A DNA stretch of 64,000 nucleotides from an uncultured Bacilli bacterium (GTDB lineage: Bacteria; Bacillota_I; Bacilli_A; RF39; UBA660), in assembly GCA_934096815.1 (NCBI GenBank), contig CAKOMY010000001.1, positions 156,614 to 220,613 on the forward strand. The letters are read 5' to 3'. Below, one piece after another: positions 3,148 to 33,915 of this stretch. The notes under the pieces are model-generated. The model was not told the DNA's origin. It made no database searches and saw only the letters and a program-made list of their open reading frames with translations. The position numbers and the translations under genes were made by a program. Positions within the stretch are counted from its first letter, which is position 1. Each line of letters opens with the position of its first letter.

Positions 3148-3924
3148 ATGATTGATCATAAATTTAAAAAACAATATGGTCAAAATTTTTTGATGGACAA
3201 AAATATATTGGATAAGATAAGTAGTAGTATTTGTCCAGGTCAAAATGATTTGATTATTGAAATTGGTCCTGGTAGTGGTAACTTAACTAAAAGGTTAAAA
3301 GAATACAAGGCAAATTTGGTATGTTTTGAAATTGATAAATCTTTAGATAAATATTTGAATTTATTAGAAGATGATAAGACAAAAGTTGTTTATGAAGATT
3401 TTATAAATGTGAATTTGGAAGAATTTGTTAAAAATTATAATTATGAAAATATTTATGTAATAGCTAATATTCCGTATTATATAACTACACCTATAATTGA
3501 AAAAATTACTTTTTCTAATATTAAGGTTAAATCTCTTTTGTTAATGGTTCAAAAAGAGGTTGCTGATAGATTATCAAGTACTAATGGCAGTAGAGAATAT
3601 GGTTATATAACTGTTTTACTAAATGCTTTTTATAATATTAATAAATTATTTAATGTTAATAGAAATTCTTTTTATCCGGTACCTAATGTAGATAGTGCCA
3701 TTATAAAATTAGATAGTAAAGAATGCAATTTATTAGATTTTGAAAAATTTAATAAGTTAATTAAAAATGCTTTTAGATTTAAAAGAAAAACTTTAAAAAA
3801 TAATTTGATTGGTTATGATTTGAATTTAGTTGATTCTTTATTAGGAAAATATGGTTATTCGTTATCAAATAGAGCTGAAGAAATACCAGTTGATGTTTAT
3901 ATAAATGTTGCTAATAAATTGTAA
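3148..3924 (+). CDS. rsmA: 16S rRNA (adenine1518/1519-N6) dimethyltransferase
   Basis: QNFL motif (KKQYGQNFLMD), SAM-binding EIGPGSGNLT and NIPY motif (ANIPYYITT). Confidence 0.92.
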   Translation: MIDHKFKKQYGQNFLMDKNILDKISSSICPGQNDLIIEIGPGSGNLTKRLKEYKANLVCFEIDKSLDKYLNLLEDDKTKVVYEDFINVNLEEFVKNYNYENIYVIANIPYYITTPIIEKITFSNIKVKSLLLMVQKEVADRLSSTNGSREYGYITVLLNAFYNINKLFNVNRNSFYPVPNVDSAIIKLDSKECNLLDFEKFNKLIKNAFRFKRKTLKNNLIGYDLNLVDSLLGKYGYSLSNRAEEIPVDVYINVANKL

Positions 3925-3934
3925 AAATAAAAAA

Positions 3935-4207
3935 TCAGTTTCCTGACTTTTCTTCAAATAAATGTGCTTTATTACGCTTTCTAACTGGCAATACCTTGCT
4001 GGTTTTTTGTGTTGCATCATAAAGTTTCTTTAAATCGGCAATAGATTTATTTACTTGATCAACACTTAGATGTAATTCTTCTGCTTGTTTTACTATTGTG
4101 TAACCTGCTGCACGTGTTTTAACTATATATATTTGTCTTTCGTTTAAATTTCCTTCATCAATAAATGCCTCAACAACAGCTTTTGTCCAAAAAACTTGTT
4201 TAGTCAT
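3935..4207 (-). CDS. Small HTH DNA-binding protein (sigma-70 region-4-like / phage ArpU-like fold)
   Basis: 90 aa. The segment YIVKTRAAGYTIVKQAEELHLSVDQVNKSI looks like a helix-turn-helix. No stronger family assignment is possible from sequence alone. Confidence 0.4.
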   Translation of the reverse strand: MTKQVFWTKAVVEAFIDEGNLNERQIYIVKTRAAGYTIVKQAEELHLSVDQVNKSIADLKKLYDATQKTSKVLPVRKRNKAHLFEEKSGN

Positions 4208-4305
4208 TTAATCACCTAAATTTAATTTTACTATGTAATAAATATTATTTCAATAATTTTAAATAATAGATGGACGAAAACTTTATATTTTAAATACATA
4301 GAATT

Positions 4306-4701
4306 TTAAATAATAGGTTTTTCAATTATATTTAGAAATTCTAAGATTTCTGTATTTTTAAAGGTAATAGCATAGTTTTTATATTTAGTATTTTCTGGAT
4401 TTATTAAATTTAAATCCAGATATTTATCATTTTTTATAAAATAACAATTTATTGTAAAATAATTTTTTATAAAATATAATTTTGGCGGTTTTTCATTTTT
4501 ATAGTAACTTGTTTTTAAATTATTTACTATTTTAGATAATTCATTTTTGCTAAATGACTGTCTATTTACGTGATATTCAAATTCATCATTTTTAATGGTT
4601 ATATCAACATTGCACCATACGTCATTGTTAGTTAATCCTATATCATTATTAGTTACGTTGATTTTCAAATAATATTTTGTATTTTTATAATTTAACATCA
4701 T
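4306..4701 (-). CDS. Hypothetical protein (Asn/Lys/Tyr-rich)
   Basis: A 131-aa ORF with no recognisable motif. It could be coding or a compositional artefact of the AT-rich DNA. Confidence 0.3.
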   Translation of the reverse strand: MMLNYKNTKYYLKINVTNNDIGLTNNDVWCNVDITIKNDEFEYHVNRQSFSKNELSKIVNNLKTSYYKNEKPPKLYFIKNYFTINCYFIKNDKYLDLNLINPENTKYKNYAITFKNTEILEFLNIIEKPII

Positions 4702-4816
4702 TTTATATACTCCTTTTTTAAATTACTTAAATATCATATCAAACTTATTATTTTTATTACTGTAGAAAAAGTGTAATAAAAATAAAAAAGAAAATCCTCT
4801 ATATTGAAGATTTAAT

Positions 4817-5050
4817 TTAAATGATTATGTGTTCATGTGTAGGCTCAACACTGCTTAATGATACTACGTTTTTTGCTTGTAATCCTTTATTAGTTCTTAT
4901 TAATTCAAATTCGACACTTTCTCCTTCAGCTAGTGTTTTATAGCCTTTCATATTAATTGCTGAATAATGGACAAAGATATCCTCTGTATCATTATATTCT
5001 AAGAATCCAAAACCTCTTTCATTATTAAACCACTTAACTCTACTTTTCAT
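4817..5050 (-). CDS. csp: Cold-shock protein (CspA family) with a short C-terminal extension
   Basis: VKWFNNERGFGFL contains the RNP1 motif and FVHYSAI contains RNP2. It has a long 5' leader region, as is typical of csp genes. Confidence 0.9.
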   Translation of the reverse strand: MKSRVKWFNNERGFGFLEYNDTEDIFVHYSAINMKGYKTLAEGESVEFELIRTNKGLQAKNVVSLSSVEPTHEHIII

Positions 5051-5262
5051 ATTTCATTCCTTCCCTTTGTGCTTCAGCACGATATTATTATCTCAAATAT
5101 ACTTTATTTCAACGTGTAAATTTTATTCCAAATTACTGTTTTTTTTCTTTTATAATTATTTTAAAAAAGTGTAATGAATGTGTAACTTAAAAAAATTATC
5201 CTTGCATATAAAGTATATATGTGGTATATTTTAAATTCTGTTTTGTGAAAGGAATGATAGAA

Positions 5263-5757
5263 ATGAAAGAATTTATAATTAATTTAGTAATAATATTTAT
5301 TGTTAAGGTTATAGATAATATTTTAGGAACTAGCAAGACTATTTTAATTCAAAAAAATAAGTCTTTTATTGCGTCTATTATGGTAATTATAAGTCAGATT
5401 ATATTTTATAAATTAATTAATATAGTTGATAGTAACGGTGGAGAATTAATGATTTACGTTATTGCTGTTGCTAGTGGAATTGGTACCTTACTTGCGTTAC
5501 ATATTAGTAATAGATTTTCTAAAGATCGAGTATTTGTTAATATTATACTTAACGATGATAAAAATGTTATGATGGAATTTAGAGATTGGCTTAAAGATAA
5601 TAAGATTACAAATTTAACAACAGATGGATATACAAAAGATTGGAAGAAGACGCTTGCAATAACTGCTTATGCAGAAACAAAGGAACAAAGTAAGTTAATT
5701 GATGAATATATTAAAAATAGTGATGTCAAATTTAAAAGAATAATTGAAAAACAGTAA
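5263..5757 (+). CDS. UPF0316/DUF2179 membrane protein (YebE-like)
   Basis: An N-terminal 3-TM region followed by a DUF2179-like soluble domain, similar in layout to B. subtilis YebE. The start was chosen at the ATG 10 nt after AAAGGAA; ORF-track start 5221 is also possible. Confidence 0.55.
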   Translation: MKEFIINLVIIFIVKVIDNILGTSKTILIQKNKSFIASIMVIISQIIFYKLINIVDSNGGELMIYVIAVASGIGTLLALHISNRFSKDRVFVNIILNDDKNVMMEFRDWLKDNKITNLTTDGYTKDWKKTLAITAYAETKEQSKLIDEYIKNSDVKFKRIIEKQ

Positions 5758-5772
5758 TAAATATTGTATAAT
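5744..5772 (+). promoter_or_regulatory. Sigma-A-type promoter with extended -10 (TTGAAA-N17-TGTATAAT) driving the glyQS leader
   Basis: -35 TTGAAA at 5744-5749, 17-nt spacer, TGnTATAAT at 5765-5772. Confidence 0.55.
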
Positions 5773-5778
5773 TTAAAT

Positions 5779-5900
5779 TGTTAAACGAAGACGGGTTCGG
5801 AAAGCCTATCAGTTATGAAATTAAAAGGGATTCTTATATAAGGATAAATAGAGTGGAACCGCGGGAATTACTCGTCTCTATGCTATATTAGAATTCTTTT
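5779..5900 (+). promoter_or_regulatory. T-box-like leader upstream of glyQS
   Basis: AAAUAGAGUGGAACCGCGGG at about 5846-5865 matches the T-box consensus (AnnnGGGUGGnACCGCGG). glyQS is classically T-box regulated. The leader is short (~120 nt) and I cannot fold a clean terminator. Confidence 0.45.
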
Positions 5901-5916
5901 TTTGTTAGGAGGATTT

Positions 5917-7287
5917 ATGGAAGAAATTACAATGAAAGATATTGTTAACTTATGTAAACAATATGGTTATATTTACCAAGGTAGTGAAATTTATGGAGGT
6001 CTTGCAAATACGTGGGATTATGGTCCATTAGGAAGTGTTTTAAAGGATAATGTTAAAGCAACTTGGAAAAAAAGATTTATTGAGGAAAGAGATAATGCTT
6101 ATCAGGTTGATGCATCAATTTTAATGCATCCTAGAGTTTGGGAAGCTTCTGGTCATGTTCAATCATTTAGTGATCCTTTAATTGATTGTAAGGGGTGTAA
6201 GAGTAGATATAGAGTTGATAATTTAATTGCTGATTATGATTCAAATGTTGATGTTGATGCAATGACTGAACAAGAAATGATGGATTATATTAAATCTAAT
6301 AAAGTTCCATGTCCTAAATGTGGAAAATGTGATTTTACTGATTTAAGAGATTTTAATTTGATGTTTAAGACTAATAGAGGTGTAGTTGTAGATAATCAAA
6401 GTTTAATTTATTTAAGACCTGAAAATGCTCAAGGAGAATATGTTAATTATTTAAATGTTAAGAGAACAAGTAGATGTACATTACCTTTTAGTATAGGTCA
6501 AGTTGGTAAAGCTTTTAGAAATGAGATAACTCCGGGTAATTTTACTTTTAGAACTATTGAATTTGAACAAATGGAGTATCAAACCTTTTGTAATCCGAAA
6601 GATGATCATGATTTATATTTATATTTTAAAGATTATGCAAAAAATTTTTTTGTAGATTTAGGCATTCCAAGTGATATGCTTAGATTTCATGATCATGAAA
6701 AGCTTGCTCATTATGCTAAAGAGGCTTGTGATATTGAATATAAATTCCCATTTGGTTGGGGAGAAATCAATGGTACTCATAACCGAACTAATTATGATTT
6801 GTCTAGACATCAAGAATATAGTGGCGAAAAAATGGAATATGTTGATTCTGTAACTAATGAGAAATTTATTCCTTACATTATTGAATCAACTGTTGGTGCT
6901 GATAGATTAGTTCTTGCATTACTATTTAATGGTTATAAGAGAGAAACTTTAGAAGATGGTGATGTAAGAGAGGTTATGAGTTTACATCCTGCTATTGCTC
7001 CTTATAAAGTTGCTGTGTTACCTTTAATTAAAAAATATCATAGTGAAAAAGCTAAAGAAATTTATAAAACTTTAAGAAAAGAATTTAATTGTGATTATGA
7101 TGAAGCCGGTTCTATTGGTAAAAGATATAGAAGAGAAGATATTATGGGTACTCCTTGGTGTTTAACTGTTGATGATAATACTTTAGAAAATGGTGCTGTG
7201 ACTTTAAGAAATAGAGATACTATGGAACAAATTTCTTTAAATGTTGATGAAGTAATTAAATATGTTCAAGAAAGAATAAAATTTTAG
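5917..7287 (+). CDS. glyQS: Glycine--tRNA ligase (dimeric class II GlyRS)
   Basis: AGGAGG RBS at 5906-5911 and ATG at 5917. Class II motifs, an anticodon-binding C-terminus and 457 aa are typical of glyQS. Confidence 0.95.
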   Translation: MEEITMKDIVNLCKQYGYIYQGSEIYGGLANTWDYGPLGSVLKDNVKATWKKRFIEERDNAYQVDASILMHPRVWEASGHVQSFSDPLIDCKGCKSRYRVDNLIADYDSNVDVDAMTEQEMMDYIKSNKVPCPKCGKCDFTDLRDFNLMFKTNRGVVVDNQSLIYLRPENAQGEYVNYLNVKRTSRCTLPFSIGQVGKAFRNEITPGNFTFRTIEFEQMEYQTFCNPKDDHDLYLYFKDYAKNFFVDLGIPSDMLRFHDHEKLAHYAKEACDIEYKFPFGWGEINGTHNRTNYDLSRHQEYSGEKMEYVDSVTNEKFIPYIIESTVGADRLVLALLFNGYKRETLEDGDVREVMSLHPAIAPYKVAVLPLIKKYHSEKAKEIYKTLRKEFNCDYDEAGSIGKRYRREDIMGTPWCLTVDDNTLENGAVTLRNRDTMEQISLNVDEVIKYVQERIKF

Positions 7288-17844: not shown

Positions 17845-18171
17845 ATGGTAACTGAATTAGGTGTTAAAGTTAAAATTCTAAGAAAAAATAATGGTGTTAA
17901 ACAAGAAGTATTAGCAAAATTTTTTGGGCTTAGTAAAGGGCAAATGTGTAATTTGGAAAGTGGTAAAAGAAATTTTAGTTTAGGACAATTGGAAAAAATT
18001 TGTGAATATTTTAATATTGATTTATCATATTTCTTTTTATTGGAAAATAATGATTCATGTTTGAACATTGCTTCTAAAGTTAAATTGTTATTTGAAAGTA
18101 ATGAATTAACTCAAAGTGAAAAAGATGAATTTTTTTTAGCAATAATGAAAGCTTATTTGGAATCTAAATAA
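17845..18171 (+). CDS. XRE-family HTH transcriptional regulator
   Basis: ILRKNNGVKQEVLAKFFGLSKGQMCNLESG is the Cro/C1 HTH. AAAGGTG RBS. Confidence 0.8.
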   Translation: MVTELGVKVKILRKNNGVKQEVLAKFFGLSKGQMCNLESGKRNFSLGQLEKICEYFNIDLSYFFLLENNDSCLNIASKVKLLFESNELTQSEKDEFFLAIMKAYLESK

Positions 18172-18209
18172 TAATTAATTTTAATTACTACTACTTAGAA
18201 AGGACTTTT

Positions 18210-18635
18210 ATGAAATTAAATTATAGAGATGTAACAAGGGAATGGCTAAAAAATTCTTGTCCTAATTCTCATCAGTTAAAAACAAGAAATTATTATGAAC
18301 ATGATGGGATTAGATATTTTGTTGGTGGTAAAAAAGTTGTATTTGATTATACAAATTATGAGAAAGATATTGCTGTATGTCTTGAAAATTCATTTGGTGG
18401 AGAAATATATTTATTACCTAAAGTAAATGAGCTTAAAGGTGTAAAAACAGCTGATTATTTATTCCGTAATGAATATTGTGATTTAAAAAAGATTGGTTGT
18501 AATGTGATAAGTGAGAAGAGAGCTGTGGATAATGTTGTAAAAAAATCAAAATTTCAAACTGAAAATATAATTTTGGATATAACAGATTCAATATTGAATG
18601 AAAATATAATTTTACAACAAGTTAAAAGATTATAA
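18210..18635 (+). CDS. Hypothetical protein, possible PD-(D/E)xK-like nuclease fold
   Basis: 141 aa, co-oriented 38 nt after the XRE gene. The segment TADYLFRNEYCDLKK could supply D...(D/E)xK residues. This is a weak motif-level inference. Confidence 0.35.
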   Translation: MKLNYRDVTREWLKNSCPNSHQLKTRNYYEHDGIRYFVGGKKVVFDYTNYEKDIAVCLENSFGGEIYLLPKVNELKGVKTADYLFRNEYCDLKKIGCNVISEKRAVDNVVKKSKFQTENIILDITDSILNENIILQQVKRL

Positions 18636-19122: not shown

Positions 19123-20097
19123 CTAATCATTATATTTTGAATCTATACCAAAATAACTTTCCATAGTAATCCAGTTACCATTATTGTAAAGTTCTTTTGC
19201 TAATTCTTTTCCAACATATCTAATGTGCCATGGTTCATAAATGTATCCTGTTTCGTTTGTTTTGCCTTCTGGATATCTTAATATGTATCCATAAATGTAT
19301 GCGTTTTTAGCTATCCATTTTCCTTCTGCTGTATCTTTAAATGAATTTGATATAGTATTTAAGTCAAAAGCAAGTCCGGTTTGATGTTCTGATGCTCCTG
19401 GTCTTGCAGAAAATGTATCTGCTGCTTTTTTACCATTTCTTTTAATATAGCCGTTATATAAATCATTTTGATAATCGTAAGAACGATAACCACTTTGGGC
19501 CCATAAATTTAAACCTAGACTAGCTGCATCACTTTTCATTAGTTTCCATGCTTCATATGCGTCTTTATCAAGTGGGTTTCGATCAAAACCATCTGATGGT
19601 ACTGTTTTGTATGGATTAACTGGTTTCCAATCTTTAGTTAATTTATATGTTTTATTTACTACTAAAATATTATTTATATAATATGCACCATTTCGGTATT
19701 CAATTGTGTATCCTTTAGATGTTTTATTTGAAATGCTGCTATTTTGATTTTGTTTACTTGTTGTTTTAATCGTAGTAGTTGTAGTTGTTGCACTTGGTTT
19801 TGTAGTTGTCGTTGAAGAAGTTGTTGTACTTGTGATTGTGGTAGTAGATTCTGTCTTTTCTTCATTTTCATCTTCAAATGGTTCCTTATTTTTTTCTTCT
19901 TGTTTATTATTATCATTTTTGTTATTACAGCATAAGTAAGTGCTTATGCCAATAAGCAAAATATCAATTAGTAAAATTATTATTAATACACTCTTACGAT
20001 ATTTTTTCTTTACTTTTTTTCTATTTTTTATAAAGTAGTAATTTAACACTAATAAAATAAGTAAGATTATAAAAAACATAACTAATTTTATATCCAT
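19123..20097 (-). CDS. Membrane-anchored D-Ala-D-Ala carboxypeptidase (peptidase M15B / VanY-like) with a Thr/Ser-rich linker
   Basis: N-terminal TM, a Thr-rich low-complexity linker (TTTITSTTTSSTTTTKPSATTTTTT), then the M15 motifs SEHQTGLAFDL and EPWHIRYVG. Confidence 0.8.
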   Translation of the reverse strand: MDIKLVMFFIILLILLVLNYYFIKNRKKVKKKYRKSVLIIILLIDILLIGISTYLCCNNKNDNNKQEEKNKEPFEDENEEKTESTTTITSTTTSSTTTTKPSATTTTTTIKTTSKQNQNSSISNKTSKGYTIEYRNGAYYINNILVVNKTYKLTKDWKPVNPYKTVPSDGFDRNPLDKDAYEAWKLMKSDAASLGLNLWAQSGYRSYDYQNDLYNGYIKRNGKKAADTFSARPGASEHQTGLAFDLNTISNSFKDTAEGKWIAKNAYIYGYILRYPEGKTNETGYIYEPWHIRYVGKELAKELYNNGNWITMESYFGIDSKYND

Positions 20098-20099
20098 TT

Positions 20100-20903
20100 T
20101 TATTCTCCATATTCCACATTATTTTCTTTAAGAAAATTAATAATATCGGTACTATTTATAACTATTCCAACTCTTTTAATTAATTCATTATTAACATAAA
20201 TGTTTTTATTTGATGATAGCATTCCTAGAATTTTTCCTTCTTTATTTAAAACTGGACCACCATTCATTCCAATGTATATTTCATTACTTATTTCAAATTC
20301 AGAAATATTTCCATTTTCATCTATTAAATTTCTTGTTACTATTCCTGTTATTGGATATGATGGAAAATTCATTTTCTTATAGGTTAACTCTATGTCATTA
20401 TTTTCTTTGTTATAAATAAAAGTTTCATATTCTGGGAAAGCAAATCCAATTCCAACAAAATCTTGTCCTTGCGTAATTTTACTATTTTCAAATTTAGGAA
20501 ATTTACTAATTAATAAATTATTATTTGTATTTTTTATTAATGCTAAATTTAAGTATTTGTGAAAAACGATTTCAATATTTGTTATACTTTCAGCTACATC
20601 GACAATTTGTATACAGATATTTGTGATGGTTTTATCATTTAAATCATATTTCTTTTCTATCTTTTTAATTTGTTTAGAATTTTTATTTTGCATTTCGGCA
20701 AATATAGGGGTAAAAACATCTTTTGTATCAACTGATAAGATAATATTTTCAGCTATTTCTTTAGTTGTAATCATGTCTCCATTTTGATTTACAACTATAA
20801 TGGTTCCTATATCATTTAAAATATCGTTTACGCCATAATATTTCTTACCAATTATCATTGGTCTAATAAAATTTAAGGCCTCTTTACAAGCTTTTTTGTA
20901 CAT
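20100..20903 (-). CDS. Hypothetical protein with degenerate trypsin-like (S1) signature
   Basis: IGMNGGPVLNKEGKILGM resembles the GNSGGP catalytic-Ser motif, but with Asn at the Ser position. No clear His/Asp partners were identified. Confidence 0.35.
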   Translation of the reverse strand: MYKKACKEALNFIRPMIIGKKYYGVNDILNDIGTIIVVNQNGDMITTKEIAENIILSVDTKDVFTPIFAEMQNKNSKQIKKIEKKYDLNDKTITNICIQIVDVAESITNIEIVFHKYLNLALIKNTNNNLLISKFPKFENSKITQGQDFVGIGFAFPEYETFIYNKENNDIELTYKKMNFPSYPITGIVTRNLIDENGNISEFEISNEIYIGMNGGPVLNKEGKILGMLSSNKNIYVNNELIKRVGIVINSTDIINFLKENNVEYGE

Positions 20904-21221: not shown

Positions 21222-21740
21222 GTGATTTTTATGGTTTTAAATTATTTTATATTAAATTTTTTAATAATTTCGACATTGGGAACATTAAATCATTTTTTGT
21301 ATGCTTGGTTTGGTAAATTAAAGATATTAAAGTTATTTTTTGCTTCTAGTGAAAGTATATTTGAACATATGAAATTAGTGCTTTATCCAAGTATATTAGG
21401 TATGTTTTTTTCAATGATATTTTTTAATTATAATAATATTATTTTTTCTTGTAGTGTTGGATTACTTGTTTCAATATTTTTAATTCCTGTTTTATATTAT
21501 ATAAGTTTATTTGTTTTTAAGAAAAATATTGGATTTATTAATATATTAATATTTTTTGTTTCAGTTTTTCTAGGATGTATTAGTAATATATTTATTATTG
21601 AAAATAATATTACTTGTAACTTAAATCTAGTTGGTATAATAATTTATTTGATAATGATAATTTATTTTGCATATTATAGTTTTTATCCAAAAAAATATGG
21701 TATTTATAAAGAACCATTAAAAAAGAACTCTACTTATTAG
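21222..21740 (+). CDS. Polytopic membrane protein, hypothetical
   Basis: 172 aa with 4-5 hydrophobic segments. Confidence 0.35.
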   Translation: MIFMVLNYFILNFLIISTLGTLNHFLYAWFGKLKILKLFFASSESIFEHMKLVLYPSILGMFFSMIFFNYNNIIFSCSVGLLVSIFLIPVLYYISLFVFKKNIGFINILIFFVSVFLGCISNIFIIENNITCNLNLVGIIIYLIMIIYFAYYSFYPKKYGIYKEPLKKNSTY

Positions 21741-21990
21741 TGTTCTCATAATAGTTACGTTCAGCTAGTTCTCTTATAACTTCATCTAAATCATCATAGT
21801 CATCTTCTTCTAATATTTCTTCTCCTAGAAAGATAATTGATGATAGGTTTAAATTTTGAAAATCTATTTCATATTTATTAAGAACTTCAATTTGATAATT
21901 TGTTAAATATAATTTTTCATTAACTTTAACTAACTTATTTTTATTAAAATCTATATCATTTAATAATTCATTTATGTTATATTCTTTCAT
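21730..21990 (-). CDS. Hypothetical acidic 86-aa protein
   Basis: Its ATG overlaps the TGA stop of the upstream small ORF (ATGA), suggesting translational coupling. Confidence 0.4.
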   Translation of the reverse strand: MKEYNINELLNDIDFNKNKLVKVNEKLYLTNYQIEVLNKYEIDFQNLNLSSIIFLGEEILEEDDYDDLDEVIRELAERNYYENTNK

Positions 21991-22163
21991 TCAAATAACT
22001 TAGTTATGTCTATTATTCCTTTTGTTTGTAGATAATAGATTATGCCTCCGATAATTGCTAAAATTAGGGTGCAAACTAGAAAACCAACGAATGTATTTCC
22101 TTGGTAAGGTTTATTTTCTCCTGGAACTATTTCTAATTTTTTATTTAATCTATTATTATCCAT
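21987..22163 (-). CDS. Small membrane protein (58 aa), absent from the ORF track
   Basis: AAGGAGA RBS 7 nt before the ATG at 22163. Single TM helix (FVGFLVCTLILAIIGGIIYYL). The TGA stop overlaps the start of the next gene. Confidence 0.4.
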   Translation of the reverse strand: MDNNRLNKKLEIVPGENKPYQGNTFVGFLVCTLILAIIGGIIYYLQTKGIIDITKLFE

Positions 22164-22314
22164 AACTTTTCTCCTTAAGTTAATTATATATTGCTATTTT
22201 ATATTTTTCAAATATTATTTAATGTAAAAATTATTGTAAATATACAAAAAGTTTACATTTTATAAATTGATATGTTATAAAAAATATGGTAAAGTTTAGA
22301 TAGTAGGTGTTGAT

Positions 22315-23121
22315 ATGAATATATTAGAAAAATTTAGTAATTTATTATCAAGCAATAATAGTGTTAAAACTGAAATAATTAATAATATATGTAATAAATA
22401 TAGTATCGAATTTCCTTTTAGTATGGATGATTTTATTAAAATTGATAGATCAGATATTAGTAATATATTAAAAGAATATGATCAAGATAATTACAATGAA
22501 TTATTAGATGCTTTTAATATGAATATGACTGTTATTAAAATGTATAATAGTAATCCATCTAGTATGTTTTTTAAAGAAAAATATGAACAAGCAATTCTTT
22601 ATATAAATAATTTAGTTATTAATATTAATGCTTATTTTTCTAAGATAAATAGTGATATATCTAATGAGATAAAAGATAAATATAATAAAATTATAACTAA
22701 AGATGGAATAAATGATACAATTGCTAATTTAGATGAGTTAGATTCTTTATTAGATTCTTTAAATATTACTTTATATGAAAAAGGAAAGATTAAACAGGAA
22801 GTTGGTAAGTCAAATGTAAGACTGGCGATTACTAATAAAAAGATAAGTGAAGAAGATAAAAAGTTATTTGAAAAGATAGAGCAAATAATTAAAGATGAAT
22901 CTAAATTAATAAGTGGTGTATCAAAAGATATGATAGAGGATTATATAAATGGTAATTTGGAAGAAGATAATCCTGATTTAAGAATGGTTACATTAATTAC
23001 AGGAATGTATAGTGAAATGAATAAAGCTAAAAATAATTTAGGAAATAGTTCATTATATAACTATAGTATTAAACTTATAAACGAATATATTAATGCTTAT
23101 GAAAAATTAAAAGAAGAATAA
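22315..23121 (+). CDS. Hypothetical protein A of a three-gene block
   Basis: 268 aa, acidic and Asn/Lys-rich, with no TM segment or signal peptide. Confidence 0.5.
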   Translation: MNILEKFSNLLSSNNSVKTEIINNICNKYSIEFPFSMDDFIKIDRSDISNILKEYDQDNYNELLDAFNMNMTVIKMYNSNPSSMFFKEKYEQAILYINNLVININAYFSKINSDISNEIKDKYNKIITKDGINDTIANLDELDSLLDSLNITLYEKGKIKQEVGKSNVRLAITNKKISEEDKKLFEKIEQIIKDESKLISGVSKDMIEDYINGNLEEDNPDLRMVTLITGMYSEMNKAKNNLGNSSLYNYSIKLINEYINAYEKLKEE

Positions 23122-23151
23122 AAGGTAAATTAAATAGAAAGGGGAATATAT

Positions 23152-24990
23152 ATGAGTGAGAAAGAATTTATTATTTCGTTATGCAATAAATATATAGAAG
23201 ATTTAGATAATAATGATAATAATAAAAATGTATCTTATTTTAAGGATGTATTACATCAAATTAATGAAAATTCTTCTTATATGTATGATTTTATAATAGG
23301 TATTAGTGAAAATTTAATTTTGGAATTGTTTAAAGATGATGAAGATAAAAAAGAGTTTATATTAGGGTTTAATGATTTAAAGAGTAAGATTATGTCTTTT
23401 AATGGTGATAATTCGAGTATTAAATTAACTTCTGATGAAAATAAAATTATAGATAGATTTAAAGAGTTAATAGTTAGATATGTAAATTCAAGTAGTAGTG
23501 ATTCTGATACTGTTAAAGATTTTATTTTAAGATTGAATAATAATTCTAGTTTGTTAGAAAGTGATTACGACTTGGTTGAAAAATTAATATATTTATATGA
23601 AAAAGATAGTACAGATGCATTATTTGAAGAGGCTATGGATTATTTAAATAGATATAATATTTCTTTAATTAGAAAGTTTAGTAAGAAAGCAAAGACTCCT
23701 GTTAAGTATACTAAAGTTGGGGAATCTAACTCAAATGAGGATAAGGTTAATGAAGATAATAAGGCAAATCCATTTGAAAATATGGTTAGTTTTGAATATG
23801 TTCCTAAAGAAAAATCTAGAGTCAATCGTAAGAAAAAAAATGATAAGTTAAAAGAAGATGAAGGAGTAGATTTTAATAGTCTATTTAGTAAATATAATTT
23901 TAATTATGATGAATTACAAACCAATTATAAAAATAAATTAAATAGTTGTGATATAGAAAAACTTGAATCATTTTTAAAATATTTAAATGATAATACTAAA
24001 TTGAGTGGTATTAATAATAATAGTCGTATTTTAGGACTTCTTTTAACAGAATCAAGTAAAGAAGCTTTCGAATATGTTAATAATGATTTGATAAACAACT
24101 ATAGTTTTAACATAGAAGATTTAGATGATGTATTAAAAAGATATACTGCTATTTATTTAGATGGTGGATTAGATAATTTTAAGAAAAATGCTGAACTATT
24201 GACATCATGTGGTGTAAAAGAAATAGCTGCAGAAGTTATAAATAATGTTGTGTTTTTTAATAATAATTATGATGATAATTATAAAAATTATGTAATTCTT
24301 AAGGAAATGGGAATTAACGCTGATGCTATTTTAAAAGATGCTTTAAATGTATTTAGTACTGATTTTGATTTATTATGTAAAAATATAAAAGTATTGGATT
24401 CATATGGCTTTGATTTAAGAGATGAAGAAGATTTTAAAAGCTTTAGTGTATTACTAATTTTGGATTTAGCTAAAGCAATAGATATGTTTATAGAAATGGG
24501 ATATAGTGAGTATATTCATGATAAACCAGAATTAACACTTAGAAATATTAAATCTTTGATTATTAAAAGAATATTGTTTGCTTATAAGAATGGTTTAGAT
24601 ATGTGGGATAATTATAGTGAAAATTGTCCTTATAAAAAGAATGATAAGTATGAGGAAATGATTAAGAATAAGGATGTTCTTGATGAAAAAGAAATAGATT
24701 TATTAATTAAAGAGTATCCTATTTTGTCTTTACTTGATTCTGGTATGCGTATTACGACTTTTAATGATCCTTATTTTGGAAGTATTAGAAGAAAAACAGA
24801 GTTTGTTTTTGATAATAAGATTGTTTCAAGAATTAAAACGTATAGTATATTTAAATGTTTAATAACAAATGGAGTTAATGAGAAGGAAGCCTTACTTTAT
24901 GCTTTATCATATAATATGGATTTAAATATGGCTGAATATGAAATCTTAAAAAAAGTTGTTTATAGAAATAATGAGGTTAGTACATTATGA
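23152..24990 (+). CDS. Hypothetical 612-aa protein with tandem ~30-35-aa helical repeats in the C-terminal half
   Basis: Repeating L-x3-G-(I/V)-x...-L/F units, for example LLTSCGVKEIAAEVI, ILKEMGINADAILKDAL, IEMGYSEYIHDKPELTL. No enzymatic motif found. Confidence 0.5.
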   Translation: MSEKEFIISLCNKYIEDLDNNDNNKNVSYFKDVLHQINENSSYMYDFIIGISENLILELFKDDEDKKEFILGFNDLKSKIMSFNGDNSSIKLTSDENKIIDRFKELIVRYVNSSSSDSDTVKDFILRLNNNSSLLESDYDLVEKLIYLYEKDSTDALFEEAMDYLNRYNISLIRKFSKKAKTPVKYTKVGESNSNEDKVNEDNKANPFENMVSFEYVPKEKSRVNRKKKNDKLKEDEGVDFNSLFSKYNFNYDELQTNYKNKLNSCDIEKLESFLKYLNDNTKLSGINNNSRILGLLLTESSKEAFEYVNNDLINNYSFNIEDLDDVLKRYTAIYLDGGLDNFKKNAELLTSCGVKEIAAEVINNVVFFNNNYDDNYKNYVILKEMGINADAILKDALNVFSTDFDLLCKNIKVLDSYGFDLRDEEDFKSFSVLLILDLAKAIDMFIEMGYSEYIHDKPELTLRNIKSLIIKRILFAYKNGLDMWDNYSENCPYKKNDKYEEMIKNKDVLDEKEIDLLIKEYPILSLLDSGMRITTFNDPYFGSIRRKTEFVFDNKIVSRIKTYSIFKCLITNGVNEKEALLYALSYNMDLNMAEYEILKKVVYRNNEVSTL

Positions 24991-25280
24991 TAGATTATTT
25001 AGAAGAATATATTACTTTAGAAGAGTTAAAAGTTGTAAAATATAATTTTAGTAGTCAAGATAAGAATAATTTTAATTATTATGAGCAAAATATTAGAGAA
25101 GTGCTAGATTATTTGAAGAGTATTGGAGTAGTTAATTTTAAGGATATTTTGTTGTATAGAAAAGATATTTGTTTAAAGAATTTAGATATTCTTAAAGATG
25201 AGATTAATAAGATAAATAAGAATTTAATGGTTTATTTATTTAATAACGATATTTCTAATTTAATAAATTTAAATATTTAA
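24987..25280 (+). CDS. Hypothetical 97-aa protein, translationally coupled to the 612-aa gene
   Basis: ATGA start/stop overlap at 24987-24990. Confidence 0.45.
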   Translation: MIDYLEEYITLEELKVVKYNFSSQDKNNFNYYEQNIREVLDYLKSIGVVNFKDILLYRKDICLKNLDILKDEINKINKNLMVYLFNNDISNLINLNI

Positions 25281-25287
25281 AAATATT

Positions 25288-25314
25288 TTAGCACTTTTAC
25301 TTGACAAGTGCTAA
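25288..25314. promoter_or_regulatory. CIRCE-like HrcA operator overlapping the -35 of the hsp20 promoter
   Basis: TTAGCACTT-N9-AAGTGCTAA against the CIRCE consensus TTAGCACTC-N9-GAGTGCTAA, with one symmetric change per arm. TTGACA (25301-25306), a 17-nt spacer, then TATAAC. Confidence 0.7.
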
Positions 25315-25359: not shown

Positions 25360-25752
25360 ATGAATATAATCCCAAGAGGTTTTTTCTTCGATGATGATTT
25401 AGATGATTTCTTTAAACCAGTTGTAAGAAAAAATGATGTAAAATGTGATATCTATGAGGAGGATGGTATGTACCATGTAGAAATGGATGTACCGGGATAC
25501 GATAAGAAAGATATTAAATTAGAAGTTAAAGATGGTTATTTAACTGTTAGTGCTTCTAAGGAGAAAGAAGAAAAAGAAACTAAGAAAAATTATATTAGAA
25601 AAGAAAGAACAATCGGTTCATTTAGTAGATCTTTTGCTTTAGGTGATATTGATGTTGATAAAATAGATGCTAAATTTGAAAATGGTATCTTAAATATTAC
25701 TATTCCTAAAGAAGAAAAAGTTGAAGCTAAGAAAACTATTGAAATTAAATAA
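25360..25752 (+). CDS. hsp20: Small heat-shock protein (Hsp20/alpha-crystallin family)
   Basis: Alpha-crystallin domain (YHVEMDVPGYDKKDIKLEVKDGYLTVSA ... FENGILNITIPK). Confidence 0.9.
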   Translation: MNIIPRGFFFDDDLDDFFKPVVRKNDVKCDIYEEDGMYHVEMDVPGYDKKDIKLEVKDGYLTVSASKEKEEKETKKNYIRKERTIGSFSRSFALGDIDVDKIDAKFENGILNITIPKEEKVEAKKTIEIK

Positions 25753-25757
25753 TTATG

Positions 25758-25783
25758 AAAGTACTCGAAAGAGTGCTTTTTTT
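25758..25783 (+). terminator. Terminator of hsp20
   Basis: AAAGTACTC-GAAA-GAGTGCTTT followed by a T-run. Confidence 0.7.
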
Positions 25784-25861
25784 AGTGAATTATTTATTGA
25801 TAAGATATTGATTATAAATTATTTTTTTGTTAAAGTTAAGATAGTAATAGAGGAGTTTGTG

Positions 25862-27166
25862 ATGAAAGAAGATTTAAATTTATTAGAAAATAATAATGAT
25901 TTTAAAGAAATTATTAATAGAAAAGGGAGTAATGCTGGTAAACTTATAGTAGTTATTATTTTATTTTTGTTGATGATTGGGCTTGGTGTTGGTGGTTATG
26001 TTTTTTACAAATTTAATAATTCACCTAAAGTTTTATTTGTTAAAACACTTAGTAAATATACTTTATTAAAGAATGATAGTAATGATTTAATTAATTTTTT
26101 ATCTAAACTTAAAGATGGTTATACGTTTTCGATTAATAATAATGTTAAAATAAAAAGTGATAAAGAAGAAATTATGAATGCATTAGTTAATATTAAATTA
26201 ACTAATAATTTTGAAAAGAAATTAGCTAATTTAGATATAAATTTTGATGATAATAATGGAAGTGTTATTAATTTTAATTCTTTAATGGAAGAAAATAGAA
26301 CATATTTAAAACTTAATGATATTTTTGATAAATATTATTACTTGGATGAAGATAATTCTTCATTGTTTGAGGATAGTGAAATTGTTGATGATAGTAAGTT
26401 AATAGAGGTTGTTTCTAATTCTTTTAGTAGTTATTTTACTGATGATAAATTTTCAAAAGAAAATGTAGATGATAATGTTAAAATAACTGTTGGCTTAAAT
26501 GATAAAGATTTTTATGATTTAATTAATTTGATTGTTAATGATTTAAAAAATAGTAAGGTGTTAGAGGTTTATGCTAGTAAAGAATTTCCTATTGAAGATA
26601 TTTATAAGGGATTGGATGATTTTCTTAGTGAACTTAAAAATGAATTAAATTTAGAAAGTAAGGATATTACATATAGCTATAGTATTTATGAAAAAAATAA
26701 TAAATTAATTAAGCAAGAACTTAGTATTAGAGATATTTTAGTAGCAATTGAAGGTGATACTAAAGGAAATATTTATGTTTATAATGAGGGAAAGATTGTT
26801 TTAACTGGAAATTATAATAAAAATTATTTTAAGTTATCCTATGAAGAAGATGGTGTAAATCTTAATTTAAGTATAGATTATAAAAATAATACTTCAGCTA
26901 GTGAATTTGATTCTAACTATAATATTGTACTAAGAATAAATGAATTAACTATAAGTGATTATGTTAAGCTAAATATTAATGATAATAAGGAGATATTAGA
27001 AATTGATAAAGAAAATTCAAAAAAGATTGATGATATAACCGCTGAGGAAGAAGAACAAATTTATAATAAGTTATTTGAAATTCCTCTTATTTCTTCTTAT
27101 ATGAATATGTATGATAATTTAAATAATTCAAATGATATAAATTATGATTTAAATACAGAAATGTAG
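25862..27166 (+). CDS. Membrane-anchored hypothetical protein (N-terminal TM, large extracytoplasmic domain)
   Basis: AGGAG RBS 6 nt before the ATG at 25862. TM segment LIVVIILFLLMIGLGVGGYVF. Confidence 0.5.
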   Translation: MKEDLNLLENNNDFKEIINRKGSNAGKLIVVIILFLLMIGLGVGGYVFYKFNNSPKVLFVKTLSKYTLLKNDSNDLINFLSKLKDGYTFSINNNVKIKSDKEEIMNALVNIKLTNNFEKKLANLDINFDDNNGSVINFNSLMEENRTYLKLNDIFDKYYYLDEDNSSLFEDSEIVDDSKLIEVVSNSFSSYFTDDKFSKENVDDNVKITVGLNDKDFYDLINLIVNDLKNSKVLEVYASKEFPIEDIYKGLDDFLSELKNELNLESKDITYSYSIYEKNNKLIKQELSIRDILVAIEGDTKGNIYVYNEGKIVLTGNYNKNYFKLSYEEDGVNLNLSIDYKNNTSASEFDSNYNIVLRINELTISDYVKLNINDNKEILEIDKENSKKIDDITAEEEEQIYNKLFEIPLISSYMNMYDNLNNSNDINYDLNTEM

Positions 27167-27254
27167 TAAAGGTTTAAACTTTTTAAAATTTTTGGTTGTA
27201 TCTACTATTATGGTTGTGATATATTAATGGTGTTATATTTTTAACATTATTAAT

Positions 27255-27330
27255 GGCCTGTTGGTGAAATGGTTAACACATAGCCCTCTCAAGGCTACAT
27301 TTATGGGTTCGAACCCCATACAGGTCACCA
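27255..27330 (+). tRNA. tRNA-Glu with anticodon CUC
   Basis: 76-nt cloverleaf: 7-bp acceptor stem with one G-U, U8, A14, TTCGAAC T-loop, G53-C61, discriminator A, and an encoded CCA. Anticodon loop CUCUCAA. Overall sequence is very close to Bacillus tRNA-Glu except that position 34 is C. Confidence 0.85.
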
Positions 27331-27346
27331 ATAAAATTGATAAAAT

Positions 27347-27368
27347 GCCTTAAGATAAGGCTTTTTTT
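27347..27368 (+). terminator. Terminator after the tRNA
   Basis: GCCTTA-AGA-TAAGGC followed by T7. Confidence 0.7.
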
Positions 27369-27429
27369 AGTTTTTAATTTAAAATTTATGATAATTTTAA
27401 AAAAGTACCCTTTAGTAGGTACTTAAATA

Positions 27430-27732
27430 TTATTTGTGTTTAATTATGTTTAAATGATCTGTATGGTTTATTTCATCTTCAGATATAGGTCTTTGCTCAT
27501 GATAAGCAAAATGATTTGATTCTGTCATGATATGATTATTGATATCAGTAATTAATTTCCATAATTCTTCTTCTTTTTGCTTATCTTCTTTACTTAGTGC
27601 TTCTTTGTATTCTAAAGCAAGTTTATTTCTTATGTCCATATATTTTTTTATTAGTTCTATTCTATATTCTTTTTCATTCATTTGTTTTTTCTCCTTTAAA
27701 CATATTTTACTATTTTTATAAGTAATAATCAC
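27430..27732 (-). CDS. Hypothetical 100-aa protein
   Basis: Charged and helical, with no motif. Confidence 0.35.
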   Translation of the reverse strand: MIITYKNSKICLKEKKQMNEKEYRIELIKKYMDIRNKLALEYKEALSKEDKQKEEELWKLITDINNHIMTESNHFAYHEQRPISEDEINHTDHLNIIKHK

Positions 27733-27834
27733 TTAAAATATAAAGGTTTTTACATTAAATTTACGCTTGTTATGCCTTGATTATAGTATTTTTGTGTAAT
27801 ATAATTAATTTGTTTATTAAGGAGGAATTGTATT

Positions 27835-31836: not shown

Positions 31837-33915
31837 ATGAATGATTTACTTAAAAATTTAAATGATGAACAAATAGAGGCTGTTAAACATAATGAAGGAC
31901 CTTGTTTAGTACTAGCTGGGGCTGGTTCTGGTAAGACAAAGGTTTTAACTAATCGTATTGCTTATTTGATAGAAAATGGCGTAAGAGATTATAATATTTT
32001 AGCTATTACATTTACAAATAAGGCTGCTAAAGAAATGAGAGATAGAGTTTATAATTTAGTTGGAGATGTTGCTTCTTTTATTGGAACTTTTCACTCATTA
32101 GGCTTGAGAATTATTAGAGAAAATTGTGGATATTTAAATTTACCTTCTAATTTTAGTATTATTGATAGTGATGATGTATTAACTGTTATTAAGAAGATTC
32201 TTAAAGATATGAATTTAGATACAAAACAATATAGTCCTTCTTATATTAGAAATAGAATATCTTTTATAAAGAATCAAATGCTTAGTGAAATGGAACTTGA
32301 TAAGTTTTTTAATACGCCTATAGATAAAATAGTTGTAGATGTATACTATAAATATAACGAAAGACTTATTGCTAGTGCGGCAGTTGACTTTGATGATTTA
32401 TTATTAATGCCTGTTAGGTTATTTGAACATAATAAAGAGATACTTGAACATTATCAAGAAAGATATAAATATATATTAATTGATGAGTATCAGGATACAA
32501 ATCCAGTTCAGTATAAGTTATCTAAATTACTTGCAAGTAAATATAAAAATATATTTGTTGTTGGTGATATGAATCAAAGTATTTATGCATTTAGACAAGC
32601 AGATTATCATAACATAGTTAATTTTGAAAAAGATTATGCTAATGCGAAAACAATTAAGTTAGAACATAATTATAGAAGTACAAATAATATTTTAAATGCG
32701 GCTAATGATGTAATAAGTCATAATAAGGAAAGAAAAGATTTAAGGTTATATTCTGATAAAGGTGATGGTCCTAAAATCACTTATTTAAGAAGTTATGATG
32801 AAAAACATGAAATATCTTTAGTTATAGATGAAATTAATAAATTATATTTAGATGGTTATGAACCTAAAGATGTAGCTATTCTATATAGAACTAATGCTCA
32901 ATCAAGAACTATTGAAGAGGTGTTTGCTTCTAAAGGTATTCCTTATAAAATTTATGGTAGTTATTATTTCTATAATAGAAAAGAAATTAAAGATTTAATA
33001 TCTTATTTAAAATTAATTTATAATGATAAAGATGAAATTAGTTTAAGAAGAATTATAAATGTACCTAAAAGAGGTATTGGAGATAGTGCTATTAAAGATA
33101 TTGAACTTAGAGCTAATTTAAATCAGTGTAGTATGTATGATGCACTTGAAAGTAAGAAAGAATTGGAGTTTAAAGATATAATTGAATCTATTAAGAAAAC
33201 TAGTGAAAATTTATCGTTAACAGAGTTGATTGATGAAGTTCTTGATAAATCAGGAATGAAGAAAGAACTTGAAGATAGTCATTTAATTGAAGATGAAACT
33301 AGATTAGAGAACCTAATGGAATTTAAAAGTATAACTGCTTCTTATGAAGAGAGAACTGGCTCTGTTAATTTAGGAGACTTTTTAGAAGAGATATCTTTAG
33401 TTTCTGATCAAGCTAATCATACGGAAGATGGCAATGTAGTTACTTTAATGACTTTACATAGTGCGAAGGGGCTTGAATTTCCAGTTGTGTTTATGGTTGG
33501 AATGGAAGAAGGTATTTTTCCTCATAATATGTCTATTATGGAAGATAATATTGAAGAAGAAAGAAGACTTTGTTATGTAGGAATAACTAGAGCTAAAGAA
33601 AAACTTTATTTAACAAACGCTAAGAGAAGAATGCTTTATGGTAAAGATCAAATGAATGTACCTTCTAGATTTATTGCAGAAATTAAAGATGATTTACTGG
33701 AAAAGAATGAAATAAATAAAGAAGAAAAGATTTTTAAAAAGGGTGAAATGTATACTAAAGATAATAGTGATATTGTTAAAGGTAGTATTATTGATCATAC
33801 AGAATATGGACTTGGGGCTGTAATTGATGTTAGTGGTAGCTTAATAACTGTGGCTTTTAAGTGTGGTGTTAAAAAATTAATGAAGAATCATAAAAGTATT
33901 ACGAAAGTTAGCTAA
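31837..33915 (+). CDS. pcrA: ATP-dependent DNA helicase PcrA
   Basis: All SF1 motifs are present (AGAGSGKTKVL, ILIDEYQDTN, VGDMNQSIYAFRQA, MTLHSAKGLEF, VGITRAKEKLYL). pcrA-ligA synteny. Confidence 0.92.
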   Translation: MNDLLKNLNDEQIEAVKHNEGPCLVLAGAGSGKTKVLTNRIAYLIENGVRDYNILAITFTNKAAKEMRDRVYNLVGDVASFIGTFHSLGLRIIRENCGYLNLPSNFSIIDSDDVLTVIKKILKDMNLDTKQYSPSYIRNRISFIKNQMLSEMELDKFFNTPIDKIVVDVYYKYNERLIASAAVDFDDLLLMPVRLFEHNKEILEHYQERYKYILIDEYQDTNPVQYKLSKLLASKYKNIFVVGDMNQSIYAFRQADYHNIVNFEKDYANAKTIKLEHNYRSTNNILNAANDVISHNKERKDLRLYSDKGDGPKITYLRSYDEKHEISLVIDEINKLYLDGYEPKDVAILYRTNAQSRTIEEVFASKGIPYKIYGSYYFYNRKEIKDLISYLKLIYNDKDEISLRRIINVPKRGIGDSAIKDIELRANLNQCSMYDALESKKELEFKDIIESIKKTSENLSLTELIDEVLDKSGMKKELEDSHLIEDETRLENLMEFKSITASYEERTGSVNLGDFLEEISLVSDQANHTEDGNVVTLMTLHSAKGLEFPVVFMVGMEEGIFPHNMSIMEDNIEEERRLCYVGITRAKEKLYLTNAKRRMLYGKDQMNVPSRFIAEIKDDLLEKNEINKEEKIFKKGEMYTKDNSDIVKGSIIDHTEYGLGAVIDVSGSLITVAFKCGVKKLMKNHKSITKVS

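Follow-up and report, generated by a model that had tools for sequence, protein, structure and literature searches.

What do three adjacent genes encode when none of their products matches a family in Pfam or NCBIfam? The question is raised by g1, g2 and g3, three open reading frames (ORFs) at positions 22315-25280 of a stretch of 64,000 nucleotides from an uncultured Bacilli bacterium (contig CAKOMY010000001.1), which was analyzed at its full length and is called the window below. Our analysis points to a heteromeric helical-repeat complex that is built around g2, a bacterial mTERF-repeat protein, and encoded by a vertically inherited operon. We give this reading, the functional part of which we infer, a probability of roughly 0.55.

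The three ORFs lie exactly where the original prediction had placed three same-strand genes of 268, 612 and 97 aa, namely at 22315-23121 (g1), 23152-24990 (g2) and 24987-25280 (g3), all on the plus strand. At the g2/g3 junction (TACATTATGATAGAT) the ATG of g3 shares four nucleotides with the TGA of g2; this ATGA overlap (24987-24990, +), claimed before and read here directly from the letters, is a putative site of translational coupling. All three products are acidic (pI about 4.8 alike). The earlier claim that they contain no transmembrane segment agrees with maximal Kyte-Doolittle values over 19 residues of 1.0, 1.6 and 0.9 for g1, g2 and g3, the peak of g2 being a charged, buried solenoid helix. 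The reported lack of recognizable similarity also holds, in that the window proteins have no match in Pfam or NCBIfam. The GC content is about 22-25% across the window. In close pairs the ratio of non-synonymous to synonymous substitution rates is 0.05-0.2 for all three genes (0.17-0.19 for g1, 0.05-0.17 for g3); g1, g2 and g3 are real genes under purifying selection.

The mTERF-type repeats of g2

The family of g2 is small, with 69 clusters (50% identity) in a set of 1.8 billion representatives; none of them has a name or a Pfam domain. An AlphaFold (AF2) model was built from 39 diverse members and has a mean predicted local distance difference test (pLDDT) score of 81.5. In this model an acidic N-terminal domain of eight helices (residues 1-176; 23152-23679, +; pLDDT mostly >80), with a net charge of -14, closes with the conserved motif M-x-Y-L-N-x-Y-N and is followed by a disordered linker (residues 177-240; 23680-23871, +; pLDDT <50). 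From about residue 241 to 458 there is a run of short-helix triplets, about six of which are visible, and residues 459-606 form a C-terminal region with a small beta-hairpin (24526-24969, +; pLDDT about 90).

The degenerate repeats at residues 286-458 (24007-24525, +), helix triplets of about 32-37 aa, are very probably remote homologues of the eukaryotic mTERF repeats. A profile of this region, searched against the PDB, matched three constructs of MTERF1 (E 4.7e-6, 5.5e-6 and 1.2e-5), MTERF3 (2.1e-4), mS93 (1.5e-3) and MTERF4 (0.14). With the profile of the full-length family, human MTERF1 (2.6e-5) and the ciliate mitoribosomal protein mS93 (0.0028), which is classed as an mTERF protein in the review PMC8998825, were recovered. 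Profiles of other regions with the same composition had no mTERF match at all. The Pfam mTERF family (PF02536) was found in 5 of 59 scans of family members (2 of 39 plus 3 of 20, the two sets overlapping; best E-values 2e-5 and 8e-4), and a faint match to it is listed for P0183. When the g2 model was compared with the PDB by Foldseek, MTERF3 came first (probability 1.00, TM-score 0.47), and MTERF4 and MTERF1 were also among the top natural matches, all with E-values of at least 0.16. A search for viral structural relatives in BFVD gave just poor whole-length alignments to tape-measure and tail proteins, and this candidate was dropped.

The periodicity itself is visible in both profile and model. 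Three self-similar units at residues 321-357, 358-389 and 390-427 (24112-24432, +) detect one another by hhalign with P values of 1e-4 to 1e-6. Each coincides with a helix triplet assigned by DSSP at pLDDT >90 (321-330/332-335/339-352, 358-364/366-370/373-385 and 390-396/398-403/405-417). The original prediction had described an mTERF-like alpha-solenoid of 4-5 tandem units in the C-terminal half of the 612-aa protein. Profile searches and predicted structure agree with the solenoid and its periodicity; three units are mutually detectable by profile, and about six triplets can be seen in the model. At the DNA level no tandem array with a period of about 100 nt was found by Tandem Repeats Finder.

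The C-terminal region is the most conserved part of g2 and its sole basic part (pI 8.5). It carries the motifs LIIKRIxYAxKN, EYPIL and KRKTE, the beta-hairpin, IISRxKTY and ALLYALTYNS. Among the 39 members, the invariant or near-invariant columns fall at the end of the repeats (N411, Y418, D444, I447, E448) and in this region (K479, S559, R560, K562, L570); in the family alignment S559 and K562 are invariant and R560 and K479 are at least 95% conserved. All 12 columns past the N-terminal domain with at least 60% Lys/Arg lie within residues 467-600, and none lies in the repeats. A profile of residues 459-606 has no relative in the PDB or Pfam. Assignments to tyrosine recombinases, PD-(D/E)xK nucleases, winged-helix or DnaD/DnaB-like proteins were judged by eye and dropped, the motifs not matching. 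In the linker, the motif NPFENMVSFEYVPKE (DIFNPQSFxY in distant relatives) occupies residues 206-229 (23767-23838) and is followed by a patch rich in Lys/Arg; this short aromatic motif is retained across the family although the linker varies in length from 21 to 212 aa.

Partner proteins, the proposed complex and its alternatives

Both partners of g2 resemble detached copies of one of its parts, which suggests like-with-like assembly with g2. For g3 the likeness is to the repeats: its AF2 model (pLDDT 93.8) consists of nine short helices in three triplets, and its profile aligns with the repeat profile of g2 (P 3e-4; score 28.5, against 11.9 +/- 2.0, maximum 17.8, for shuffled controls), with no alignment to the N- or C-terminal regions of g2. 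We regard g3, the identical sequence of which occurs on 190 contigs, as probably a three-unit mini-mTERF partner of g2. For g1, an acidic, helical protein whose relatives range from 268 to 789 aa, the likeness is to the N-terminal domain. About 175 N-terminal residues align with that domain of g2 over 173 collinear columns with an hhalign score of 28.4; after column shuffling (100 controls) the score was 10.2 +/- 1.5 (maximum 14.6), and reversing the profile gave 13.2. This alignment suggests, with weaker support than that for the repeats, a paralogous origin for the N-terminal half of g1 and this domain of g2. Searches of the PDB and Pfam with the g1 profile returned nothing. Much longer forms of g1 occur in two related loci, L022 (3651-6020, 789 aa) and L021 (4409-6019, 536 aa), with C-terminal extensions that look RelE/ParE-like by eye (KKGDFRVAYLPLNG...VYLVISAGKK) and have no Pfam match.

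On these grounds a complex can be proposed in which g1 would pair with g2 via the common N-terminal domain, and in which translational coupling would yield g3 in step with g2, so that g3 could dock onto the solenoid or lengthen it; the conserved overlap of the two genes argues for co-translation. The acidic mTERF solenoid would serve mainly as a scaffold, and contact with RNA or DNA would be made chiefly by the basic C-terminal region together with the Lys-rich linker. Nucleic-acid binding is proposed because characterized mTERFs bind nucleic acid and because of the 12 Lys/Arg columns at 467-600. All characterized mTERFs are reported to do so (PMC7826268), and the same is reported of the bacterial proteins pTERF1 and pTERF2 (PMC11417379). 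By analogy with the organellar mTERFs, the role would be one in housekeeping gene expression rather than defence, either in rRNA or ribosome maturation or as a transcription roadblock. The target might be rRNA or ribosome assembly, as for MTERF3, MTERF4, mS93 and plant mTERFs, or alternatively a DNA site, as for MTERF1 and pTERF.

Several results weigh against this proposal and are best considered together with the alternatives that they favor. The chief point against direct nucleic-acid binding is that the repeats are acidic. The same is true of the three proteins as a whole; the repeat region has a net charge of -15 (family median -6) and not one conserved basic column, unlike the nucleic-acid-binding mTERFs, and a basic repeat surface was not found, as judged on net charge and conservation alone. 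This keeps alive, as somewhat unlikely, the alternative that the trio binds other proteins as a scaffold and does not act on nucleic acids, working for example in the envelope, in division or in proteostasis, with the fold providing only a solenoid surface. The conserved short aromatic motif of the linker, which is typical of protein-protein docking, and the hsp20 gene directly 3' of the trio in many loci would fit such a scaffold. On the other hand, hsp20 stands under its own CIRCE-controlled promoter and is not beside the trio in the related loci L022, L023, L027 and L028, the best-conserved part of g2 is basic with its 12 conserved Lys/Arg columns, and no characterized member of the mTERF family is known to act without nucleic acid (PMC7826268).

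The remaining points concern the mTERF relationship itself. Window g2 has no match to PF02536 (gathering threshold 23.1 bits) at E-values up to 1, and family consensus sequences have no mTERF match in Pfam at E-values up to 0.1. The Foldseek E-values of 0.16 or worse and the TM-score of 0.47 are modest, with TAL effectors interspersed among the mTERF matches. Designed armadillo repeats reach E-values similar to those of MTERF1 with the repeat profile, from which it follows that generic solenoid composition adds to the profile scores, and no mTERF match in the PDB was obtained with a profile, itself poorly aligned, of the 20 most distant members. The mTERF evidence for g3 consists of three weak results, none significant by itself: two sub-threshold Pfam mTERF matches among distant homologues (0.0018 and 0.023), a search of the PDB with the g3 profile, in which no mTERF was matched, and a top PDB TM-score to MTERF4 (0.50, at E 9.9). 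These observations could be read as convergence, the repeats being an alpha-solenoid whose mTERF likeness comes from the Leu/Ile/Asn/Lys-rich composition of proteins in a 22% GC genome. We consider this improbable. Four natural mTERF proteins, and no other natural family, head the profile search, and each mTERF match consists of two separate stretches or one long stretch of about 80-100 residues. The armadillo scores are sums of weak matches to a single short segment, in which no stretch passes by itself. The profiles of other regions, equal in composition, match no mTERF, and Foldseek, starting from an independently predicted structure, puts MTERF3 first.

Genomic setting and inheritance

Whether the trio is a resident or a guest of its chromosome was examined in 28 related loci. 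ORFs were extracted around each g2 homologue in the first 24 loci and the window, and gene calls were used for L025 to L028. In all of the first 24 loci and the window a g1 homologue lies immediately 5' of g2, and a g3 homologue of 94-101 aa follows at anything from a 10-nt overlap to an 8-nt gap, one contig ending within g3. Across loci with called coordinates the junction ranges from a 20-nt overlap to an 8-nt gap. The complete trio is also present in L026, L027 and L028, and L025, the contig of which begins at g2, has g2 and g3.

The surrounding order is often conserved as well, even at about 20% identity. The order g1-g2-g3-hsp20-gltX is unchanged in loci with g2 100, 87 and 60% identical and recurs in L026, where the match of g2 to the family profile is no better than E 1e-8. 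In L026, as in the window, addB, vanY and a trypsin-like gene lie upstream on the minus strand, and the layout addB-vanY-trypsin-like (minus) / g1 g2 g3 hsp20 gltX … pcrA ligA is kept from the window to L026 and to L028. Two loci, L014 (47%) and L018 (30%), end just past g3, yet retain the trio and the 86-aa gene upstream of it, and in L028 the trio stands directly 5' of pcrA…ligA, which are downstream in the window also. Where the flanks are unrelated, in L022, L023 and L027, which are among the most distant g2 relatives, the trio is still intact; it adjoins pssA and psd in L022, genes for helix-turn-helix (HTH), DUF4417 and PBECR1 proteins and a methyltransferase in L023, and comes after yabP-yqfD-ybeY-dgkA in L027. 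The unit is taken to be the trio because g1-g2-g3 persists even in these unrelated settings.

Composition agrees with long residence. The GC content and synonymous codon usage of the three genes are native (z +0.5 to +1.3 against 36 other window ORFs), a comparison that the original prediction had called for and on which recent horizontal transfer was rejected. The matching genome records are metagenome-assembled genomes (MAGs) labelled Bacilli, 'Tenericutes UMGS1661', 'Bacillales UBA6331', Erysipelotrichaceae and Clostridium sp. The trio is apparently an inherited chromosomal module, vertically transmitted and lineage-specific in very low-GC gut Bacilli known only as MAGs. The original prediction had set against itself the case of conserved core genes with known function in relatives; the genes do prove to be conserved and apparently vertical, and the second half does not hold, no function being known in a relative.

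The same prediction had offered an accessory insertion, for example a defence or regulatory module, between two unrelated convergent operons. The convergent arrangement is not what the window contains, since the upstream genes (21730-22163, -) are divergent and the genes from hsp20 and gltX onward co-directional. That the block is such an island is highly improbable: its unassigned function, its own promoter, the variable genes nearby (DUF6512, a 434-aa membrane ORF, an AAA_14/DUF4143 gene, the L025 prophage) and the HTH, DUF4417 and PBECR1 flank of the most distant locus, L023, would suit it, but the trio is constant from 99% to about 20% identity while its neighbours change, codon usage and GC are native, and searches of PADLOC (PADLOC-DB 2.0; none better than E 0.018), of PHROGs and, by tblastn, of phage and plasmid records found nothing for the trio, the single IMG/VR contig with trio genes being a prophage (integrase, ImmA-like, HTH) plus host flank, with these genes in the host flank at the contig end.

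The block has its own promoter region, as had been claimed before. A promoter-like site, TTGATA-17-TAAAGT with an upstream TG (22267-22295, +), and the ribosome-binding site AGTAGGTG (22303-22310, +) precede g1. Five aligned loci show little or no variation in the -35 hexamer, the TG-extended -10 element and the ribosome-binding site, and the conservation extends down to 47% protein identity. Directly 5' of the -35 hexamer, between the divergent promoters, lies the perfect palindrome TGTAAA-N11-TTTACA (22235-22257, +), which is kept in relatives whose proteins are 93, 87 and 60% identical and may be a candidate operator for some regulator. It is the sole exact copy within the window, and chance alone predicts a match at such stringency, so that conservation carries its functional case; a regulon built on it was dropped in view of the single copy.

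Two neighbours were weighed as further components of the system and set aside. The hsp20 gene (25360-25752) lies directly 3' of a near-perfect CIRCE (HrcA operator) inverted repeat at 25288-25314 (TTAGCACTT-N9-AAGTGCTAA) that overlaps a TTGACA -35 hexamer; with its own CIRCE element and promoter, and its absence from beside the trio in several loci, it is a separate heat-shock transcription unit rather than a fourth operon gene. On the other side, the divergent pair consists of genes for an 86-aa acidic protein (21730-21990, -; C-terminus ...SERNYYENTNK) and a 58-aa protein with a single transmembrane segment (21987-22163, -). The 86-aa protein, which has no Pfam family, exceeds the trio in conservation (its identity is 41-78% in cases where that of g2 is 20-60%), and its gene adjoins the trio in most loci with synteny, among them the very distant L028. 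It is not beside the trio in L022, L023 and L027 and was rejected as a fourth component.

Variable content was seen around these genes. The interval between hsp20 and gltX (25862-27800) is a variable spot. Its 434-aa membrane ORF is not present in the 87% and 60% relatives, and the interval also holds a small ORF on the minus strand and, at 27255-27330, a tRNA-Glu(CTC) accompanied by terminator-like hairpins; the 481-aa ORF call at 25721-27166 overlaps hsp20, and its true start is probably the ATG at 25862. Directly 3' of hsp20 in L025 lies a prophage lysogeny module (3160-5996; integrase, ImmA/IrrE-like peptidase, HTH). Upstream in the window, at 17845-18635, addA and the vanY cluster have between them a small toxin-like pair, namely an HTH_31/HTH_3 gene (108 aa) and, after it, a gene for a 141-aa protein with a CdiA_C toxin-domain match (E 2e-8); the 100% and 87% relatives have this pair, and the 60% relative does not. 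The VanY D,D-carboxypeptidase, which carries an N-terminal transmembrane segment and a linker rich in Thr and Ser, and the 267-aa protein after it, with a weak trypsin-like match (Trypsin_2 in the L026 orthologue), occupy 19123-20903 on the minus strand and are kept beside addAB clade-wide. At 33526-33623 the window matches Rfam RF03531, a Clostridioides difficile small RNA (sRNA) 'included into helicase gene', with 69 bits against a gathering threshold of 65. The match falls within a UvrD/PcrA-type helicase ORF (31837-33915) and is probably conserved coding sequence rather than an sRNA. In the most divergent trio, in L023 (685-7917), g2 has 874 aa, a small MTS/RsmD-like methyltransferase follows, and PBECR1 is a barnase/EndoU/RelE-like nuclease. 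This single locus may represent a mobile context or an echo of the MTERF4-NSUN4 pairing.

Known mTERF-like systems and what the operon adds

With the eukaryotic mTERF proteins (MTERF1-4, plant mTERFs, mS93; PF02536) g2 shares tandem degenerate helix triplets of about 30-35 aa arranged in a solenoid, and these proteins are its best matches by profile (MTERF1, MTERF3, mS93) and, at weak E-values, by predicted structure. A further parallel is that MTERF4 acts with a partner, NSUN4, and g2 likewise appears to have dedicated partners. In contrast to its eukaryotic counterparts, g2 is bacterial, encoded in a chromosomal operon and acidic instead of basic. It has an additional N-terminal domain shared with g1, a disordered linker with its motif and a basic C-terminal region that is novel. 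The proline that is conserved in the mTERF motif has mostly given way to other residues, and the window protein stays under the Pfam threshold.

The only prokaryotic mTERF-like family that we found described in the literature is pTERF (Hu et al., Nucleic Acids Res 2024, PMC11417379), which comes from animal-gut MAGs of Bacillota; according to the same paper, prokaryotic mTERF homologues had not been known before. pTERF1 is a tandem-repeat protein with a period of 35 and 3-11 regular units that binds a specific DNA motif with nM affinity (PMC11417379). Both g2 and pTERF carry three-helix mTERF-like repeats and come from gut MAGs of Bacillota. The repeats of g2, however, are degenerate, with three units mutually detectable and no tandem repeat at the DNA level, and g2 is a 612-aa multidomain protein with two partner genes and deep synteny, whereas pTERF is described with no partners or extra domains. 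This separation of g2 from pTERF1 (MBQ3414883.1) and pTERF2 is one by published description. TAL effectors, PPR/OPR proteins and designed armadillo repeats also form superhelices from helical repeats of about 33-35 aa, and TAL effectors and armadillo repeats gave weaker Foldseek or profile matches. The Foldseek alignments of TAL effectors to g2 have root-mean-square deviations of 17-18 Å and a TM-score of about 0.2, and neither they nor the armadillo repeats are the best natural match of g2.

According to PMC7826268, mTERFs are factors of the organelles of animals and plants. What the operon adds is a bacterial mTERF-type solenoid whose chromosomal context is conserved, two obligate partner genes that resemble detached pieces of g2, and a conserved basic domain that is new. 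It also allows a fold to be assigned to three families that are widespread in human and animal gut metagenomes and carry no Pfam, NCBIfam or source annotation. If the proposed binding of RNA or DNA is true, the trio would be a tractable bacterial model for mTERF solenoids with partners and a clue to the origin of the family.

A bolder version, which we regard as improbable, would make the trio a second, more canonical bacterial mTERF lineage, that is, an ancient, vertically inherited three-protein machine in which a solenoid of g2 and g3 is positioned by the paralogous g1 and acts as a roadblock or RNA-maturation factor. If this were true, the machine would serve genomes of about 22% GC that are nearly devoid of GC-rich hairpin terminators, and it would be a free-living counterpart of the organellar mTERF system, which has been viewed as an invention of eukaryotes, and possibly a source from which that system evolved.

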